Below, one piece after another: positions 1,936 to 54,514 of a DNA stretch of 64,000 nucleotides. Made by a program: the position numbers and the translations under genes. This stretch comes from an uncultured Chloroflexia bacterium (GTDB lineage Bacteria > Chloroflexota > Limnocylindria > Limnocylindrales > CSP1-4): positions 32,001 through 96,000 of the forward strand of contig CAVVNQ010000018.1 of assembly GCA_963749705.1 (NCBI GenBank). The letters run 5' to 3'. Under the pieces are notes generated by a model, which did no database searches, was not told the DNA's origin, and worked only from the letters and a program-made list of their open reading frames with translations. Numbering within the stretch: the stretch's first letter is position 1; every line of letters begins with the position of its first letter.

Positions 1936-2580
1936 TCAGGCGTCGGGCAGGGGCGCCCAGCCCGCCGAGGTCAGCGCGTGGAGCTCACCCAGTCCGATGT
2001 CGAACCAGGCGCCATCCAGCGAGATGTCGCCCGCCGACTCGCGCGACGCGATCCAGGGGAACGTGCGGAGGTGAGCGAGGGATCGCTCGACCGAGCGGTG
2101 CTCCAGCTCCCGCTGGGCGGCCGCCGGCGCCATCGGACCCGCAGCCTCGAGCTCCGCCGCCATCCCGCGCAGGCCGGCCACCCACGTGCCGAGGAAGTCC
2201 GTGGAGGTCAGGGTGGGCTCGCCGCGAAGGGCTGCGCCGATGCCGCCGCACCGGCCATGACCCAGGATCACGATCGAGCTGACCTCGAGGGCGAGGACGG
2301 CGAACTCGAGCGCGGCGCTCGCGCCGTGGCTCGCGGCGTCCGGCGCGTACTCCGGGACCAGCCCGGCAACGTTCCGGACCACGAACAGCTCGCCCGGACC
2401 GGCGTCGAACACCGTCTCGGGTCCGGATCGAGAGTCCGAGCACGCAATGACCATCGTCGCCGGCTGCTGGCCCTCCCCCAGCCGGCGCCATCGCTCCCGC
2501 TCGGCCGAGTACCGGGTTGCGCGGAAGCGCCGATAGCCGGCGACGAGCGCGTCGGGCAGCGCGGTCTCGGGGGTCGCCAT
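1936..2580 (-). CDS. Beta-class carbonic anhydrase
   Basis: Zn-ligand motifs CSDSR and HGRCGG, plus GELFVVRNVAG. Confidence 0.93.
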   Translation of the reverse strand: MATPETALPDALVAGYRRFRATRYSAERERWRRLGEGQQPATMVIACSDSRSGPETVFDAGPGELFVVRNVAGLVPEYAPDAASHGASAALEFAVLALEVSSIVILGHGRCGGIGAALRGEPTLTSTDFLGTWVAGLRGMAAELEAAGPMAPAAAQRELEHRSVERSLAHLRTFPWIASRESAGDISLDGAWFDIGLGELHALTSAGWAPLPDA

Positions 2581-2588
2581 CGGCCGGC

Positions 2589-3848
2589 TCAGAACATCGT
2601 CGCGCAGTACGGAGCCCGATCGACGGCGAACATCGCGTCGGCTCGGCGCAGCGCGCCGGGGGTCAGCTCCCGCACGCGATCTGCGTGCGCCAGGTCTGAT
2701 GGCCGGAACGCCCCGAGGTAGATCGCGGCAAGGTCGGCGACATCGGCGACGAGGTCGGCCGGGGCTCCGGTCTGCGACACGGCGGCGATGGCGGTTCCGG
2801 GATCACCGCTCGCCTCGATCTGCCAGCGTCCCGCGTTCCACGGGCAGAACGAATCGGTCACCTCGACCACCAGCCGGTCGGCCGTGGCATAGCGACGGGC
2901 CGCGAGCGCTGCCGGCAGGTCGACGAGACGGAGCCAGATCCCGTCGCGCGCGACCAGGCCCAGGCCTCGCGGGTCGGCCAGGGCGAGCAGCAGCGGATGC
3001 GGCATCGAGGCTCGCCAGCAGCGGATCGTCCGCACCAGGTCGACATTGAACAGGAACGTCCAGATCCCGCGCTCGGCCCGGTTCGTCGTGGCCACCGCCT
3101 CCATCACCAGCAGCTGGTTCCTCGGGCCACGGTCGTCCCAGTCGTCCTTGATCCGGTACAGCGCGTACCCCTCGGCGTTGCCGTCGACCTCGTACACGTA
3201 CTTGAGCAGCGGTCCGGCGCCACGCCGGTTGTCCTTGTCGTCGCGCAGGATGTGGTCCCGCCACCAGGCCTCGGAGCGCGTGATGGCCCCGGGGGTGCTG
3301 ACGCGCACGCGGTCGTAGATCGCCGGCAGGGCGGCCAGCGCCTGTGCCTCGTCGATGGGCCGCAGCCGGCCACCGGGCTCGCCGGGCCGGAGCCACGCGG
3401 TGCGCCCGTGGTCGACCTCGAACGTGGCCGCGACCGTCCCCATCCCGTAGCCGAAGCGCTGGTAGATGACCCCCTCCGACGCCCACAGGATCGCGACCGG
3501 CTCGCCCCGCCGCCGGACGTCGTCCAGCTGGTGGCGCATCAGCGACCGGAGCACGCCCTGGCGCCGGTATCCGGGATCGACGCCGACCGCGGTGACGCCC
3601 GCCGCCGCGACCTCGCCCCCCGGCACGGTCAGGCGGAACGAGTACGCGGCGGCGCTCCCGACCGGCGCGTCCCCGTCGAATGCGGCGATCACGCGATCGG
3701 CTTCGGTGGTCGGTCGCCAATGCTCGAACTCGGCGTCGGTGACCTCCTCGCCGAACGCCCGCATCACGGGATCGATGAACGACTGGACGGACTCGGGGGT
3801 GGCGGTCCGGATCGGGTACGGCGCTTCCTGCTCATGCATGGACGTCAT
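2589..3848 (-). CDS. Eis-like GNAT acetyltransferase with C-terminal SCP2-like domain
   Basis: Real part of ORF 2589..5414 starts at ATG 3848 (MTSMHEQ), overlapping the MFS stop as ATGA. Motifs VTAVGVDPGYRRQG, LWASEGVIYQRFGY, WLRLVDLPAALAARRY and DSFCPWNAGRW. Confidence 0.88.
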   Translation of the reverse strand: MTSMHEQEAPYPIRTATPESVQSFIDPVMRAFGEEVTDAEFEHWRPTTEADRVIAAFDGDAPVGSAAAYSFRLTVPGGEVAAAGVTAVGVDPGYRRQGVLRSLMRHQLDDVRRRGEPVAILWASEGVIYQRFGYGMGTVAATFEVDHGRTAWLRPGEPGGRLRPIDEAQALAALPAIYDRVRVSTPGAITRSEAWWRDHILRDDKDNRRGAGPLLKYVYEVDGNAEGYALYRIKDDWDDRGPRNQLLVMEAVATTNRAERGIWTFLFNVDLVRTIRCWRASMPHPLLLALADPRGLGLVARDGIWLRLVDLPAALAARRYATADRLVVEVTDSFCPWNAGRWQIEASGDPGTAIAAVSQTGAPADLVADVADLAAIYLGAFRPSDLAHADRVRELTPGALRRADAMFAVDRAPYCATMF

Positions 3849-16567: not shown

Positions 16568-16594
16568 TTAGCACTCTCAAGGTGCGAGTGCCAA
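16568..16594 (+). promoter_or_regulatory. CIRCE element (HrcA operator)
   Basis: TTAGCACTC-N9-GAGTGCCAA, one mismatch to the consensus TTAGCACTC-N9-GAGTGCTAA, directly upstream of hrcA. Confidence 0.95.
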
Positions 16595-16613: not shown

Positions 16614-17675
16614 ATGGCGCGTCGCGTGCGCTCCAGCGGCCCCCTTGACCTTCGCTCCCAGGCGATCCTTCGGGCCGTCATCGAGGAATACGTCACCACC
16701 GCTGCGCCGGTCGGCAGCCACGCTCTGGTCGAGCGCTTCCATCTGGGCGTGTCCAGCGCCACCGTCCGCAGCATCCTCGCCGAGCTCGAAGCGGCCGGCC
16801 TGCTGACCCATCCCCACACGTCGGCGGGTCGGGTCCCCACCGAGCAGGGCTACCGCTACTACGTCGAATCCATCGTGGACAACGTGCCCCTGCCGCCGGT
16901 CGAGCAGCTCATGATCCGGCACCAGTTCGGGCAGGTGGAGTTTGCGAGCGAGCACTGGTTCCGGCTGGCCGCGACCACGCTGGCATCGGTGACCCGCGCG
17001 GCGGGGCTCGCGACGCCCGCCAAGCCACGGTCCGCGCACCTTCGTCGGCTGGACCTGGTCTCGATCAGCGACCGGTTGGCGAGCCTGATCCTCGTGCTCC
17101 GCGAGGGCTCCCTCAAGCAGGTGCTCGTATCGCTCGACGAGGCGGTCGACCAGGAGGCGCTGTCCGCGGTCGCGAACCGCCTCAACGAGCTGCTGGACGA
17201 CCACACGGGCGCCGAGGCGGCGCGTGCCCTGGAGTCGCTCGACCCGGCCGATCCGGGGCTCGACCTTCACCGCCGCGTCGGCGAGCGCGTCGTGCGGGCG
17301 CTCGACGAGTTCGACGGCTCGGCGATCGAGGAGCTGTTCTCGGACGGGCTGCTCAACGTGATGGCCGCGCCCGAGTTTGCCCAGAGCGAGCGATTGCGCC
17401 GGGTGTTCGCGGCGCTCGAGAACCGGATGTACCTGGCCGAGCTCATCGACGATGTCGCCGGTGCGGGACGCGTGTGCGTGTTCATCGGCCACGAGAACTC
17501 GGCCGAGGACATGGCGGACGTCTCGCTGGTGCTTGCCCCGTACGGGCAGCCCGGACGTGCCGTCGGCGTCGTCGGGGTGCTGGGGCCGACCCGGATGGCG
17601 TATCCGCAGGCCATCGGCACCGTCCGCTTCATCTCCGGGCTCATGAACGAGCTCATCGACCACCTCTACGCCTGA
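16614..17675 (+). CDS. hrcA: Heat-inducible transcription repressor HrcA
   Basis: VSSATVR, HPHTSAGRVPT and GVLGPTRMAY; CIRCE upstream. Confidence 0.97.
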   Translation: MARRVRSSGPLDLRSQAILRAVIEEYVTTAAPVGSHALVERFHLGVSSATVRSILAELEAAGLLTHPHTSAGRVPTEQGYRYYVESIVDNVPLPPVEQLMIRHQFGQVEFASEHWFRLAATTLASVTRAAGLATPAKPRSAHLRRLDLVSISDRLASLILVLREGSLKQVLVSLDEAVDQEALSAVANRLNELLDDHTGAEAARALESLDPADPGLDLHRRVGERVVRALDEFDGSAIEELFSDGLLNVMAAPEFAQSERLRRVFAALENRMYLAELIDDVAGAGRVCVFIGHENSAEDMADVSLVLAPYGQPGRAVGVVGVLGPTRMAYPQAIGTVRFISGLMNELIDHLYA

Positions 17676-18381: not shown

Positions 18382-20328
<1,947 letters not shown>

Positions 20329-20352
20329 CCCAGGCCTCGTCACTGCGGAACG

Positions 20353-20386
20353 CGGCTCGCCGACGCGCGTCGGCGAGCCGTTTCTC
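20353..20386 (+). terminator. Putative intrinsic terminator after dnaK
   Basis: Perfect 28-bp palindrome CGGCTCGCCGACGCGCGTCGGCGAGCCG followed by TTTCTC. Confidence 0.75.
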
Positions 20387-20466
20387 GTGGCGCCGCTGCC
20401 GTGCGCGCCGTTTCTCGTGCGCCGCAGCTCGGCGCGCGACAGCTCGGCGCGCGAGGCCGCGAGGCC
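20377..20466. repeat. Cluster of short direct duplications
   Basis: gccgtttctcgtg x2 (20377, 20407); cagctcggcgcgcga tandem x2 (20425-20454); gcgaggcc x2 (20451-20466). Confidence 0.8.
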
Positions 20467-20469
20467 GCC

Positions 20470-20638
20470 CCGATTTCTGTCATTCAGTACTCACGCGCCT
20501 GTTCGGCGCCGCCGCTGGACGCGGTAGGCCCTGAGCGGGGTCAACCAGCCACGACGCGGCTAGATGTCCCCGATTCGGTGTCGCGAGCGGCTCGTACGGT
20601 GCCTTGCAGCCGAGTGGGTACTCGGTGACACAAACAGG
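20470..20638. repeat. Three-box inverted-repeat element, copy A (overlaps the 3' end of the HTH-nuclease gene)
   Basis: 28-bp imperfect terminal inverted repeats at 20470-20497 and 20611-20638, plus an internal direct box at about 20540-20558. Homologous to 50016-50173. Confidence 0.8.
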
Positions 20639-21279
20639 ATGCCGGCCACGGCGCGATCCGGCGCGGCGCACCAACGCCGCATCTCGACGGTTCGGCCGGG
20701 AAGCGCCGCAGAGAAGGTATCGGCGTGCCGTTCGATGCGCCTGCGCGAGGTCTTGTCGCCCGGCACGACCAGCCAGCGCGAGATCGAATGAGCGGGCCAG
20801 CCTCGCTCGCGCGCCACGCTTTTTGCCAGCCGGGTCTTGCGATCGATCCCTGCCAGCGTTGCCTGTACGTCGGGGACGGTGCTCTTGACCTCGACCACGA
20901 GCAACGCACCGGTCTGCCGGTGCGTGGCGAGAATGTCGATCGACCCTCGTTCGCCATAGACGTTGAAGGTCACCTCGGGTGCGACCTCCCAGCCACGGCG
21001 GCGAAGGATGCGCGAGACGCGCTCGACGATCTCCGCGTGGCCTGCGTCCAGTAGACGATCGACGTCCTCTCCGTGACTCATCACCCGAACGCTGACCCTC
21101 GCCCCGAGCGCCGCCAGCACCAGGGCCAGCGTCCGCACCGTCAGGCGGTCACCACGACCGCGCTCGATCCGCGAGATTGCCGTCTGCGAGATGCCCGCCG
21201 CTTCGGCCAGCCGTGCCTGGGTCCAGCCGCGCCGCCGACGCAGGGCGCGAAGCGACAGGCCGAAGCGCACCGGATCCAT
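20560..21279 (-). CDS. XRE-family HTH fused to a PD-(D/E)xK (DUF559/Vsr-like) nuclease-fold domain
   Basis: LRALRRRRGWTQARLAEAAGISQTAISRIERG (HTH_3-like), then PEVTF...GSIDILA...VVEVKS (E-D-ExK). Start is ATG 21279 or 21285. Confidence 0.8.
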   Translation of the reverse strand: MDPVRFGLSLRALRRRRGWTQARLAEAAGISQTAISRIERGRGDRLTVRTLALVLAALGARVSVRVMSHGEDVDRLLDAGHAEIVERVSRILRRRGWEVAPEVTFNVYGERGSIDILATHRQTGALLVVEVKSTVPDVQATLAGIDRKTRLAKSVARERGWPAHSISRWLVVPGDKTSRRRIERHADTFSAALPGRTVEMRRWCAAPDRAVAGILFVSPSTHSAARHRTSRSRHRIGDI

Positions 21280-21383
21280 CCGCATACGATCGCGAGCGCC
21301 GCTCACCGCCGGCTCACTCCGATCCGGATGACCCGGGTCTCGGTCGACATCGCGGAGTCCCGGCCCGCGACGCAACGTGCGCG

Positions 21384-49438: not shown

Positions 49439-49894
49439 ATGAGCGAGTCGTTCCGCGCCACCATCCAGCAGACGGGCAAGACCGCATGCGGGATCGAGGT
49501 CCCCGAGACCATCGTCCGTGCCCTCGGCGGCAGCCGACGCCCGGCCGTCGTGGTGACCCTCGACCGCTACACGTACCGGTCAACGGTGGCGCCGATGAGC
49601 GGCGGCTACTGGGTCGGGGTCAACGCCGACCATCGCGAGGCATCGGGTCTCAAGGCCGGCGACGAGGTCAAGGTGACGCTCGCCCTGGACACCGCGCCGC
49701 GCGAGCTCGAGGTGCCGCCCGAGCTGGCAGCAGCGCTGGACGCCGATCCCGCGGCGAAGGCGTTCTTCGACGGGCTCTCGTACAGCAACAAGCGCGTGTT
49801 CACGCTCAGCGTGGAAGGAACGAGCAACCCCGAGACGAAGGCTCGCCGCGTCGCCAAGGCGATCGCGCTGATGCGCGCGGGCCGCGTCCGGTAG
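49439..49894 (+). CDS. DUF1905 plus YdeI/OmdA-like domain protein
   Basis: GIEVP, TYRSTVAPM, GLKAGD, VPPELAAAL and ETKARRVAKA. Confidence 0.8.
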   Translation: MSESFRATIQQTGKTACGIEVPETIVRALGGSRRPAVVVTLDRYTYRSTVAPMSGGYWVGVNADHREASGLKAGDEVKVTLALDTAPRELEVPPELAAALDADPAAKAFFDGLSYSNKRVFTLSVEGTSNPETKARRVAKAIALMRAGRVR

Positions 49895-49895
49895 T

Positions 49896-50018
49896 CGCGC
49901 CCGGGCTGCTCGCGCCGACGTGCCCGGCGCGCCCGGGCTGCTCGCGCCCATCGCGCCCGTTACGCCGGTCGCCCCACCGCACCGGTCGCGCCCGGGCTTC
50001 CCGCGCCCATCGCGCCCG
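49896..50018. repeat. Three dispersed direct repeats
   Basis: cgcgcccgggct(g/t)c(t/c)cgcgcc at 49896, 49928 and 49987; the last two extend to 32 bp with 2 mismatches. Confidence 0.8.
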
Positions 50019-50173
50019 AAATGGTCAATCAGCACCCAGGCGCATGCTCGGGATGAACCCGGCGCAGGATCGGGGCCCGGGAGTCGCGTGGGTGGTATCT
50101 GTCCCAGGAACGGCGCGAGTCGGACCAGGTTCGGCGCCGACCAGCCGCGTGCGTGCTATCTGACGCAAATCGG
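50016..50173. repeat. Three-box inverted-repeat element, gene-less copy B (MITE/REP-like)
   Basis: Imperfect terminal inverted repeats at 50016-50042 and 50146-50173, internal box at about 50085-50103. The reverse complement aligns gaplessly with copy A. Confidence 0.8.
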
Positions 50174-50177
50174 CGAG

Positions 50178-50215
50178 GCCACGCCGGGGAAGCCACGCCG
50201 GGGAAGCCACGCCGG
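50178..50215. repeat. 14-bp tandem repeat x2.7
   Basis: gccacgccggggaa at 50178 and 50192, partial copy at 50206. Confidence 0.85.
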
Positions 50216-50227
50216 CCAGGGCGTGCG

Positions 50228-51922
50228 CTACGCGCGCGACCCCTGCATCGGCGCCTGCTCCTCGACCGCCGCCCAGGCACGAACCTGATCGCGCCTGACC
50301 TTGAACGTGTGCGTCCGTGGGAAGTCCGGCTCGGGCCACAGGCGCCAGCCCTCGATCCGCTGGTTGGGGCCGAGCGACCGGTTCGCCTCCTTGATCACCG
50401 CGGCGATCTCTGAACGCAGCGGGTCGTCGCCGCCGGGCGCCGCCGCCCCAGCCGTGCCTGCCCCGGCCGTCCCTGCCCCGGCCCCCGCGTCGGCCGGGAG
50501 CCGCCCAACCGGCGCCAGCACCACGACCTCGATCCGCCCGGGCTTCGTCTCGAGCGCCACGGAGTCGCGGACGCCGGCCACGCGCAGCGCGTTCTCGATG
50601 TCCTCGGGGAACACGTTGAACCCGTTGGGCAGGACGATGATGTCCTTCTTGCGGCCGTGGAGGTGAAGCCGGCCCTGCGCGTCGACCTGGCCCAGGTCGC
50701 CGGACCGGTACCAGCCGTCGGCGGTGAACGCCTCGGCCGTGGCCTCCGGGTTCTCCCAGTAGCCCTTGAACAGGTTCGGGCCGGCGAACTGGATCTCGCC
50801 GTCGTCGGCGATCCGCATCCTGACCGGCTCCGGCGGCCAGCCGACGCAGCCCGGCGGATGGTCGGCCATCGTCGTGCAGCAGCCAGCCGCCGTCTCGGTC
50901 GAGCCGTAGCCCTGGAGCACGATCACGCCCATGTCCTCCCACGCCTGCTGGAGGGCAGGCGGCAGGAACGCCCCGGCGCACGCGAACAGCCGCAGGCCGC
51001 CGCCGAACTGCCGGTGCACGCTGCCGAACAGGAGCCGGCGCGCCCACATCGGCAGCCGGCGCGCGATCCGCCGCAGGCGCTCGAACGACGCCGTCCGGCC
51101 CTGCTTCGCAACCTCGCGCTCGATCGCGCTCCAGAACAGGTCCAGCAGCTGGGGCACCAGCAGCATCGTCGTGACCCGGTGGTCGTGGAGCGCCTCGAAG
51201 ATGACCCGCGGGTTGCGGCTTCGCACGTACAGGATGTCGGCGCCGACATCGAGCGCGTAGTACAGCGACACCGCCTGCTCGAGCGAGTGGGACAACGGCA
51301 GCAGCGACACCAGCCGGTGCTCCATCGGCTTGATGATCCCGTGGAACGACCGGACGCCGGCCAGCACGTTGTCGTGGGCGAGCATCACGCCCTTGGGATT
51401 GCCGGTCGTGCCCGAGGTGAACACGAGCTCGAACACCTCGTCGGGACGCGGGCGAGGCCAGGCGGCGACCTGCGCCTCCCAGTCGGGCGGGAAGGTGTCA
51501 TCGGGCTCGAGCGACAGGTCGTCCACGATCGTGGTCGGGAACGCCTCGAGCCCCACCTCGGCCGGGTCGCCGGCGTCGCGACCGCTGCCCAGCGCGAGAT
51601 GCACCGCGCCCGACACCTCGACGATCCGCCGGATCGTGTCCGGGGCCATCCGGGCGTCGAGCGGGACGAAGATCAGGCGCGCCATCATCGCGCCGAAGTA
51701 GGCCGCCGGCAACGCCGGCGTCGACGGCGACCACGTCAGCAGCCGGTCACCCGGCTGGAGCCCGATGGCGCGCAGCCGCCATGCCGCGATCCGGCTCCGC
51801 CGCAGCAGCTCGCGGTACGTCCAGTGGAACGTCGAGCCGTCGTCGCGGCGAAGACCCAGCGCCGGACGGTCGGCGTACCGCGCCGCGCTGGTCTCGAGGA
51901 GATCGACCAGGGTCTCCATCAT
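50228..51922 (-). CDS. AMP-dependent (long-chain acyl-CoA) synthetase/ligase
   Basis: FTSGTTGNPKGV, QGYGSTE, WYRSGDLG, GRKKDII and PRTHTFKV. Confidence 0.9.
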   Translation of the reverse strand: MMETLVDLLETSAARYADRPALGLRRDDGSTFHWTYRELLRRSRIAAWRLRAIGLQPGDRLLTWSPSTPALPAAYFGAMMARLIFVPLDARMAPDTIRRIVEVSGAVHLALGSGRDAGDPAEVGLEAFPTTIVDDLSLEPDDTFPPDWEAQVAAWPRPRPDEVFELVFTSGTTGNPKGVMLAHDNVLAGVRSFHGIIKPMEHRLVSLLPLSHSLEQAVSLYYALDVGADILYVRSRNPRVIFEALHDHRVTTMLLVPQLLDLFWSAIEREVAKQGRTASFERLRRIARRLPMWARRLLFGSVHRQFGGGLRLFACAGAFLPPALQQAWEDMGVIVLQGYGSTETAAGCCTTMADHPPGCVGWPPEPVRMRIADDGEIQFAGPNLFKGYWENPEATAEAFTADGWYRSGDLGQVDAQGRLHLHGRKKDIIVLPNGFNVFPEDIENALRVAGVRDSVALETKPGRIEVVVLAPVGRLPADAGAGAGTAGAGTAGAAAPGGDDPLRSEIAAVIKEANRSLGPNQRIEGWRLWPEPDFPRTHTFKVRRDQVRAWAAVEEQAPMQGSRA

Positions 51923-54067: not shown

Positions 54068-54514
54068 TCAGACTCGTGCCAGCCAGCGATCGAACTCCGT
54101 CCTCGTCCGTCTGCCCACCTGGACCGCTGCGCCACGCTTGAAGGACGAGCTCCCGAAGATGTGCGTGTACCCGCCAAGGTCCGTCGGGAGATAGAAGTCG
54201 CCGTACTTGATCATCGCCACCCGAGTCGGGCCGAAGTGGCCGTAGAAGAAGCCGAACTCGAACAGCACGTTCAGGTTCGGCACCTGCACGGTGTTCCCGC
54301 GGATCACGGTCTCGGACTCGGGCGACATCACGAGGACGGCGGCGTCGACCTGCTCGCGGATCGCGTCGAGGTTCTGGAGCAGGGTCGTGCCGGGAACAAA
54401 GGCGTCCCACCATGGCAGGAACTCGAGCGTGGCGCCTGAGAACTTCCTGACGATGGCCTTTGCCTGCGATCGCGCCGCGCCGGACGATCCGATGAAGACG
54501 CGAGTGCGCGGCAC
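54068..54514 (-). CDS. Stand-alone TIR-domain protein (CAP12/Pycsar-type TIR, PF10137-like)
   Basis: GTG 54514 after GGGAGG; 148 aa with VFIGSS, DAAVLVMSP, NVLFEFGFFYG.FG..R and LPTDLGG. Confidence 0.82.
   Translation of the reverse strand: MPRTRVFIGSSGAARSQAKAIVRKFSGATLEFLPWWDAFVPGTTLLQNLDAIREQVDAAVLVMSPESETVIRGNTVQVPNLNVLFEFGFFYGHFGPTRVAMIKYGDFYLPTDLGGYTHIFGSSSFKRGAAVQVGRRTRTEFDRWLARV

Follow-up and report, generated by a model that had tools for sequence, protein, structure and literature searches.

By what route does an intergenic stretch that contains no gene come to carry the same array of short boxes as the end of a gene elsewhere on the chromosome? The question is raised by positions 50016..50173 (module B, the same as copy B) of the window, i.e. 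the whole 64-kb stretch of DNA that was analysed. The window consists of core chromosome (pgi, lepA, hrcA, dnaK, men-type enzymes, a PBP, dnaJ and ybeY) of a genome with a GC content of 70%. The counterpart of the stretch, module A (copy A, 20466..20644), is an imperfect palindrome of approximately 170 nt, the centre of which is the stop codon of a gene encoding a protein of 248 amino acids (P0001, 20560..21306, minus strand). This protein combines an XRE-family helix-turn-helix (HTH) with a PD-(D/E)XK nuclease fold, and its gene is referred to here as the HTH-nuclease gene. The reading towards which we lean is that module B is a gene-less, probably decaying duplicate of a selected stem-loop palindrome at the 3' end of this gene, with boxes derived from coding sequence.

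Similarity of the two modules

Each of the modules contains three boxes. In module A, the outer box A-L (20479-20497, plus strand) is located in the non-coding mirror arm. The degenerate inner box A-int (20540-20558, plus strand) is part of the central palindrome, 61 nt from A-L and immediately beyond the stop codon, and box A-R (20611-20629, minus strand) is in-frame coding sequence (S-P-S-T-H-S) of the HTH-nuclease gene. In module B, box B-L (50024-50042, plus strand) is the counterpart of the coding-sense arm and reads S-I-S-T-Q-A, the inner box B-I (50085-50103, minus strand) reads T-D-T-T-H-A, and B-R (50146-50164, minus strand), in the outer mirror arm, reads R-F-A-S-D-S-T-H-A-A-G-R-R-R-T-W. 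At a distance of 61 nt from B-R, box B-I forms part of a direct repeat of 47 nt (61-nt spacing, 72% identity). The arms and all three boxes quoted in the original prediction were recovered to the base. The distance of 61 nt between the starts of outer and inner box is exact and alike in A and B, and the distance between inner and inverted box was likewise correctly given as 79 nt in B versus 89 nt in A.

The identities between the modules, counted by hand with the reverse complement from 50173 laid without gaps on 20470 onwards, were reproduced exactly (37/50 and 68/110). This similarity is beyond chance, a score of 68/110 being 7.7 SD above all window offsets (127,782 offsets on both strands for the 110-mer of B; mean 32.2, SD 4.7, best unrelated score 53). 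The only other high score, 62/110, was obtained against the minus strand of copy A itself. BLASTN within the 64-kb window aligned A and B over 125 nt (63% identity, E 1.2e-8), with the next match at E 0.013. The degenerate box motif had six matches with at most one mismatch versus 0.57 expected, and none of 100 shuffles reached six; the count is partly circular, as the motif was derived from those same sites. The sixth match (54433-54451, minus strand, one mismatch) has no partner boxes nearby and was judged to be due to chance. With box order and 61-nt spacing shared, B proved to be a genuine gene-less copy of the 160 to 170-nt element of A. Over the 22 nt that follow the outer box, conservation between A and B is as high as within the box (16/22 versus 21/28, counted from the alignment).

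Two claims on the arrangement of the modules have to be revised. A position between convergent gene ends, assumed for both copies, is found for B, which is flanked by the ends of an OmdA/DUF1905 gene (49894, plus strand) and an AMP-binding gene (50228, minus strand); it does not apply to A, the right arm and box of which belong, in frame, to the 27 final codons of 20560-21306. The 10-bp difference between A and B had been taken for helical phasing. MAFFT places it as a single 10-nt gap and a pairwise aligner as several small gaps in the same stretch. There, A encodes A-A-R-H-R, including the nearly invariant RHR tail, and B is about 10 nt shorter and lacks the RHR codons. This shortening, which looks like decay of the coding arm, accounts for the supposed helical turn, and the phasing was abandoned.

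The HTH-nuclease gene and the coding origin of the boxes

The HTH-nuclease protein has a Pfam match to HTH_3 (3.8e-13) and weak ones to Mrr_cat and MmcB-like. NCBIfam and PADLOC gave sub-threshold HTH matches only, and the significant matches in a sequence search of the PDB were HTH proteins only. At least 2071 homologues were found, among them proteins annotated as HTH proteins of Limnocylindrales or Chloroflexota. In plasmids and phages, tblastn with the gene as query had no match. In the AlphaFold model (mean pLDDT 85.8), the last strand comprises residues 221-226 (AGILFV) and the tail (231-248) is disordered. Foldseek matched the HTH domain to HipB/HigA-type repressors and the PD-(D/E)XK domain to R2 retrotransposon proteins, which carry a restriction-like endonuclease, as well as to NucS and Card1, at low TM-scores that are not decisive. 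The nuclease fold has an intact D...E-x-K motif, as read from the sequence. The GC3 of the gene (0.80) differs from that of the dnaK, TetR, OmdA-like and AMP-binding genes (0.88-0.96), and its codon usage is atypical for the region.

Related loci were found in a genome scan (one genome per species, 185,579 species) with an arm pattern matching three of the four outer arms of the window. Five loci were obtained. Three of them (L001, L003 and L005, in Nostocales, Chlamydiae and Neisseria records with a GC content of 0.34-0.50) have no other similarity and were treated as chance matches. L002 is the orthologous dnaK/HTH-nuclease/TetR locus of a related Chloroflexia MAG (89-96% identical), in which the exact pattern detected no further locus besides locus A. 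L004 belongs to another Chloroflexota MAG and encodes a homologue with 52% identity, which has the box at the same place (...FLSISTQATGRHR... before the stop codon) and ends in ...LWFLSISTQATGRHRVGRSRTPPRA. The reading frame of the L004 homologue (1957-2671, minus strand) is interrupted by a TGA near codon 16 of the HTH domain, which may indicate a pseudogene or an assembly error.

In the codon frame, the box is G-TCA-NNN-AGY-ACN-CAN-NCG, corresponding to S-x-S-T-H/Q-A/S, and the boxes vary at the third (wobble) positions of codons and in a single variable codon (N and Y positions). Two boxes are real coding sequence, namely A-R in the window and the box in the L004 homologue. The last 27 codons of the HTH-nuclease gene encode GILFVSPSTHSAARHRTSRSRHRIGDI up to the stop codon, with box A-R in frame as GILFVSPSTHSAARHR... 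in its coding context. The A-L arm translates to RFLSFSTHAPVRRRRWTR followed by a stop codon and has the same motif; the mirror arm corresponds to an alternative short Arg-rich tail with a stop (...THAPVRRRRWTR). In module B, the translation of the B-R arm (RFASDSTHAAGRRRTW...) also has this motif and resembles the A-L peptide. The B-L arm gives KWSISTQAHAR..., in a frame that runs on as ...HARDEPG with the RHR lost, and B-I gives ...TDTTHATPGPR.... Taken alone, the peptide similarity between B-R and the gene tail carries little weight (tblastn E 0.005, with unrelated Arg-rich matches scoring equally), and the argument for a coding origin relies on the in-frame position of the box instead of this score. 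Since conserved and variable positions follow the codons, the box pattern needs no DNA-binding protein as explanation. The boxes are the codon-periodic footprint, on both strands, of the C-terminal peptide ...F-V-S-x-S-T-H/Q-A-x-x-R-H-R....

Among the best 120 of the at least 2071 homologues, a C-terminus of the type G-h-h-F...RxR is present in 116, RHR in 93 and an 8-residue linker in 101, and S.ST[HQ] in 14. An architecture shared by 116/120 together with a box peptide in 14/120 indicates that the arm is the ancestral tail of the gene and that the exact box is lineage-specific, one state of a variable linker. The tail beyond RHR (20560-20610) reads ...RHRIGDI before the stop codon in the window versus ...RHRNPDT in L002, and it comprises between 4 and 29 residues across the homologues. 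Within the palindrome loop, the position of the stop codon apparently shifts.

Constraint and folding of the gene-end palindrome

The non-coding arm of module A (20466-20559) is identical at 93 of 94 positions between the window and L002, i.e. in one species pair. Third codon positions differ at 85/874 sites (59/632 in dnaK and 26/242 in the HTH-nuclease gene; approximately 10%) and other intergenic DNA at 23/177 sites (7/87 and 16/90), plus indels (Fisher test for the non-coding arm: p 0.0011 versus third positions and p 0.0003 versus other intergenic DNA). The coding tail between the two conserved arms differs at 5/51 sites, which rules out a recent recombination tract as the cause of the conservation. 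From this comparison, the non-coding half of A appears as a sequence under purifying selection. Box A-L is invariant in L002. All six differences in module A are apical, three of them in unpaired positions, one changing G-U to G-C and two breaking an inner helix; in both arms, the outer stem is unchanged. The claim that the element is maintained by function is borne out to this extent for A; it does not extend to the boxes as binding sites, as their pattern follows codon positions. A small ORF on the mirror arm of A was considered and rejected, having no in-frame start after 20466 and an upstream flank that differs from L002 by 50 nt of indels.

Module A is built from the coding arm, a mirror arm about 110 nt downstream and a palindromic centre with the stop codon and inner boxes; in the lineage of the window, the mirror arm also has a 61-nt internal duplication. 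The two strands of A match each other at 65/110 positions and the minus strand of B matches the minus (gene-sense) strand of A at 62/110; the two strands of B are less alike (44/110). Module A folds into one long hairpin (z -3.40 for the minus and -3.25 for the plus strand), and none of 200 shuffles was as stable. An inverted-repeat scan of the whole window returned GC-rich background pairs only and missed module A, which has no long exact seeds. Neither module A nor module B had a hit in the promoter scan, and a terminator-like hairpin with a T-run was found neither in 20200-20900 nor in 49700-50400. Rfam 15 gave no match at gathering score over the window and none at E <= 1 over both modules.

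L004 contains two modules. The first, at the gene end, has the same folding topology as A (z -1.62, 13/200 shuffles as stable). A second complete, gene-less module (2734-2910) is located upstream of the gene, 876 nt from the first, and has the same topology (z -1.73); it is marked by a 48-nt direct repeat (83% identity, spacing 876) and its coding-type arm is decayed. The gene is hence bracketed by two modules in direct orientation, the second of which sits between divergent genes. The inner boxes are not recognisable in L004 (one match with at most two mismatches). In an RNAalifold alignment of five modules, the outer stem is kept in all, and compensatory changes occur in 10 of 42 pairs. Against this stand a covariation term on the unfavourable side (+2.52) and an alignment of only about three effective (independent) sequences. 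Some states are shared between the arms of one locus (CAC in window A; CAG-G, ACT and CGT in L004), and the L004 arms, read by eye, resemble each other more than the window arms.

In the gene-linked form, the two arms would pair, giving a single long stem-loop at the transcript's 3' end or a DNA cruciform. A stem-loop around the stop codon might then act as a 3' end without a U-tract or as a stabilising structure, and selection or gene conversion would keep both arms matched. We infer that copying proceeded from the gene to the mirror arm. A stem-loop function of the parent module is put forward tentatively, as a serious possibility that stays somewhat short of probable. The location of the second L004 module between divergent genes, where termination makes no sense, is evidence against a terminator role, and the conservation of the non-coding arm fits a protein-binding site or a small RNA equally well.

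Short tandem repeats adjoin both modules on the mirror-arm side (20370-20468; 49895-50018; 50178-50215). The left flank of B (49895..50018) has a period of approximately 56-59 nt, and a perfect tandem repeat of 14 nt x 2.7 (50178..50215) abuts the mirror arm of B. The latter is related to the repeat next to the mirror arm of A (8 nt x 2.4), with a common GCGWGGC-like core. Between the window and L002, the arrays on the A side differ by indels of 24, 20 and 6 nt, a VNTR-like behaviour. Immediately behind the stop codon of dnaK (20354-20385), a perfect 11-bp GC-rich hairpin with a 4-nt loop is followed by GTTTCT and is fully conserved in L002; it is probably the dnaK terminator, for which the consensus scan made no call. 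A near-perfect CIRCE-type inverted repeat (16568-16594; 9-nt spacer, one mismatch to the consensus) is located about 20 nt upstream of the hrcA ORF (16614-17675) and is the expected HrcA operator of the hrcA-dnaK region.

Nature of module B and comparison with known systems

Module B has a codon-position GC of 0.62-0.69 in all six frames, without the skew seen in the HTH-nuclease gene (GC3 0.80) and four neighbouring genes (0.88-0.96). Its folding is not significantly more stable than that of shuffled sequences (RNA z -0.76 for the plus and -0.45 for the minus strand; DNA z +0.10), and in the minimum-energy fold of the plus strand B-L pairs with B-I, not with B-R. The best-kept part is the mirror arm, the first 50 nt of which, counted from 50173, match A-L at 37 positions. 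Beside B, tblastn of the HTH-nuclease protein against the window detected neither a paralogue nor a relic of the gene body. An ORF of 122 amino acids (49920-50288, plus strand) extends over all of B and into the 3' end of the convergent AMP-binding gene. As Pfam gives no match and the codon-position GC is flat, it was concluded not to be a gene, though gene callers might annotate it. On the contig of L002, no exact match to the B-R arm was found; such an absence is expected about 87% of the time under neutrality and is weak evidence that B is held less tightly than A.

With regard to its sequence, B is very probably a non-coding, gene-less paralogue of the palindromic module A, with boxes of coding origin. 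It could have originated by duplication of the gene 3' end together with the mirror arm, followed by loss of the gene body, or by copying of the module alone. That B is now a decaying relic between two convergent genes is considered likely.

The original prediction saw in the boxes a protein-binding array. According to this explanation, the 19-nt boxes are sites, in fixed geometry at A and B, for a DNA-binding protein, possibly the adjacent XRE-HTH nuclease. It would account for the 93/94 identity of the non-coding arm of A against a neutral divergence of about 10% and for the box order and 61-nt spacing common to A and B, and the neighbouring gene indeed encodes a predicted sequence-specific DNA-binding fold next to a nuclease fold with intact D...E-x-K. 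The box pattern is codon-periodic, however, with two boxes being coding sequence, the 22 nt after the outer box are conserved like the box, and the 10-bp difference coincides with the lost RHR codons. Moreover, the boxes have no dyad symmetry, none is present upstream of the HTH-nuclease gene in the window, and the inner ones are unrecognisable in L004. Such an array is therefore regarded as unlikely. A more specific variant is that the palindrome serves the adjacent XRE-HTH/PD-(D/E)XK protein as its cognate site in DNA or RNA, a recognition, cleavage or recombination site that arose from the last codons of the gene, was selected and was copied without the gene, leaving functional solo sites such as B and the second L004 module. 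This is quite improbable; if true, Limnocylindria-like Chloroflexota would have a gene-plus-site system of a type that has not been described before.

A REP/MITE-like nature had also been proposed. As a mobile palindromic element (MITE-, REPIN- or RPE-like), the module would target the ends of genes, in some cases preserving the reading frame, and A, B and the two L004 modules would each go back to an insertion of their own. The size of approximately 160-170 nt, the imperfect inverted arms, the lack of a gene inside and the gene-less copies in two lineages agree with such an element, as does the capacity to code on both strands, a property reported for RPEs (PMC10969869). Nevertheless, nhmmer with a half-element profile and a covariance model with filters off yielded only A and B in the 64-kb window. 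The next best covariance match had 12.6 bits, and the 469 matches at E <= 10 are noise below 13 bits in a rough calibration. The longest identical k-mer in the flanks is 4 nt, even with each end shifted by up to 8 nt in either direction, and no target duplication was found. No transposase, recombinase, integrase/invertase, RAYT-type or HUH domain is encoded by the 45 ORFs scanned in the window, and the exact-pattern scan gave no further locus in the related MAG. An in-frame insert like a Rickettsia palindromic element was rejected, since the arm is the C-terminus common to 116 of the best 120 homologues, without an extra insert. Furthermore, the L004 arms are, by eye, closer to each other than to the window arms, which points to a local origin and not to the spread of one element. 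The designation as REP/MITE-like was accordingly withdrawn, and a mobile element is rated as a poor candidate. Recombination is poorer still: as a folded attC- or shufflon-like site, the module would make the gene a cassette with modules on both sides. Modules without a gene, B among them, would then represent either vacant sites or partners in an inversion by which the C-terminal tail is exchanged. The directly oriented modules on either side of the L004 gene (876 nt apart), the imperfect palindrome at the 3' end of an ORF, and the alternative Arg-rich tail with a stop encoded by the A-L mirror arm would suit such a site. Against it, the window encodes no integrase or invertase, attC-type core motifs (searched as regular expressions) had no match on either strand of A or B including 20 nt on each side, and locus A has no upstream module. 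In the window as in L002, the HTH-nuclease gene has dnaK as its neighbour, an arrangement suggestive of vertical inheritance. We consider a recombination site very unlikely. For a protein-binding or a recombination role, nothing specific was found in support.

We thus return to the selected gene-end palindrome with a gene-less duplicate. What is unusual about it is that the last 16 or so codons of a gene double as one arm of a selected palindrome of about 170 nt, gene-less copies of which have been shed in two lineages. If the stem-loop is functional, it would constrain the C-terminal linker of a widespread, unstudied regulator-nuclease family (more than 2000 members) and open a way to study how 3' ends are formed in an uncultured clade of high GC content. 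If B is only a relic, it is ordinary decaying DNA. For motif scans of high-GC genomes, the locus calls for caution, as what looks like an array of boxes in conserved geometry can merely reflect a coding sequence together with its mirrored copy.

The modules can be compared with several known systems. REPINs form populations of tens to hundreds of copies together with a RAYT gene. REPs and REPINs are described as short imperfect palindromes of inverted repeats with a spacer, often between convergent genes (PMC3337134). The modules, too, are short imperfect palindromes made from inverted repeats, but the high copy number of REPs is not seen within the 64-kb window, where two copies and no RAYT-like ORF are present, and the arms stem from the codons of a neighbouring gene. 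Bacterial MITEs such as ERIC and Rickettsia palindromic elements are similar in length (approximately 150 nt), inverted arms and absence of a transposase. RPEs and intragenic ERICs can supply in-frame peptide segments, and coding on both strands is reported for RPEs (PMC10969869). The imperfect inverted arms of the modules correspond to the terminal inverted repeats of MITEs; in contrast to these elements, the modules have within the window no target duplication, no parent IS and no several dispersed copies (A and B only), and the coding arm is an ancestral C-terminus. Integron attC sites share the imperfect palindrome at the 3' end of an ORF, and the L004 modules flank a gene in direct orientation, but attC-type core motifs and, in the window, an integrase are missing. 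The CIRCE/HrcA operator comes to mind because of the AGCAC-type core of the box and the position of module A just downstream of dnaK; CIRCE was nevertheless rejected as the identity of the boxes, since its only match in the window is 16568-16594 and the boxes, more than 40 nt from any inverted partner, have none at a spacing of 9 nt. Hairpin terminators without a U-tract ("I-shaped") occur in high-GC bacteria. Module A is like these in being a stable hairpin without a T-run at the 3' end of a gene, in a genome of 70% GC; it differs in the size of its stem-loop (approximately 170 nt), in having the stop codon inside it and in the use of some 16 codons of the coding sequence as one arm.
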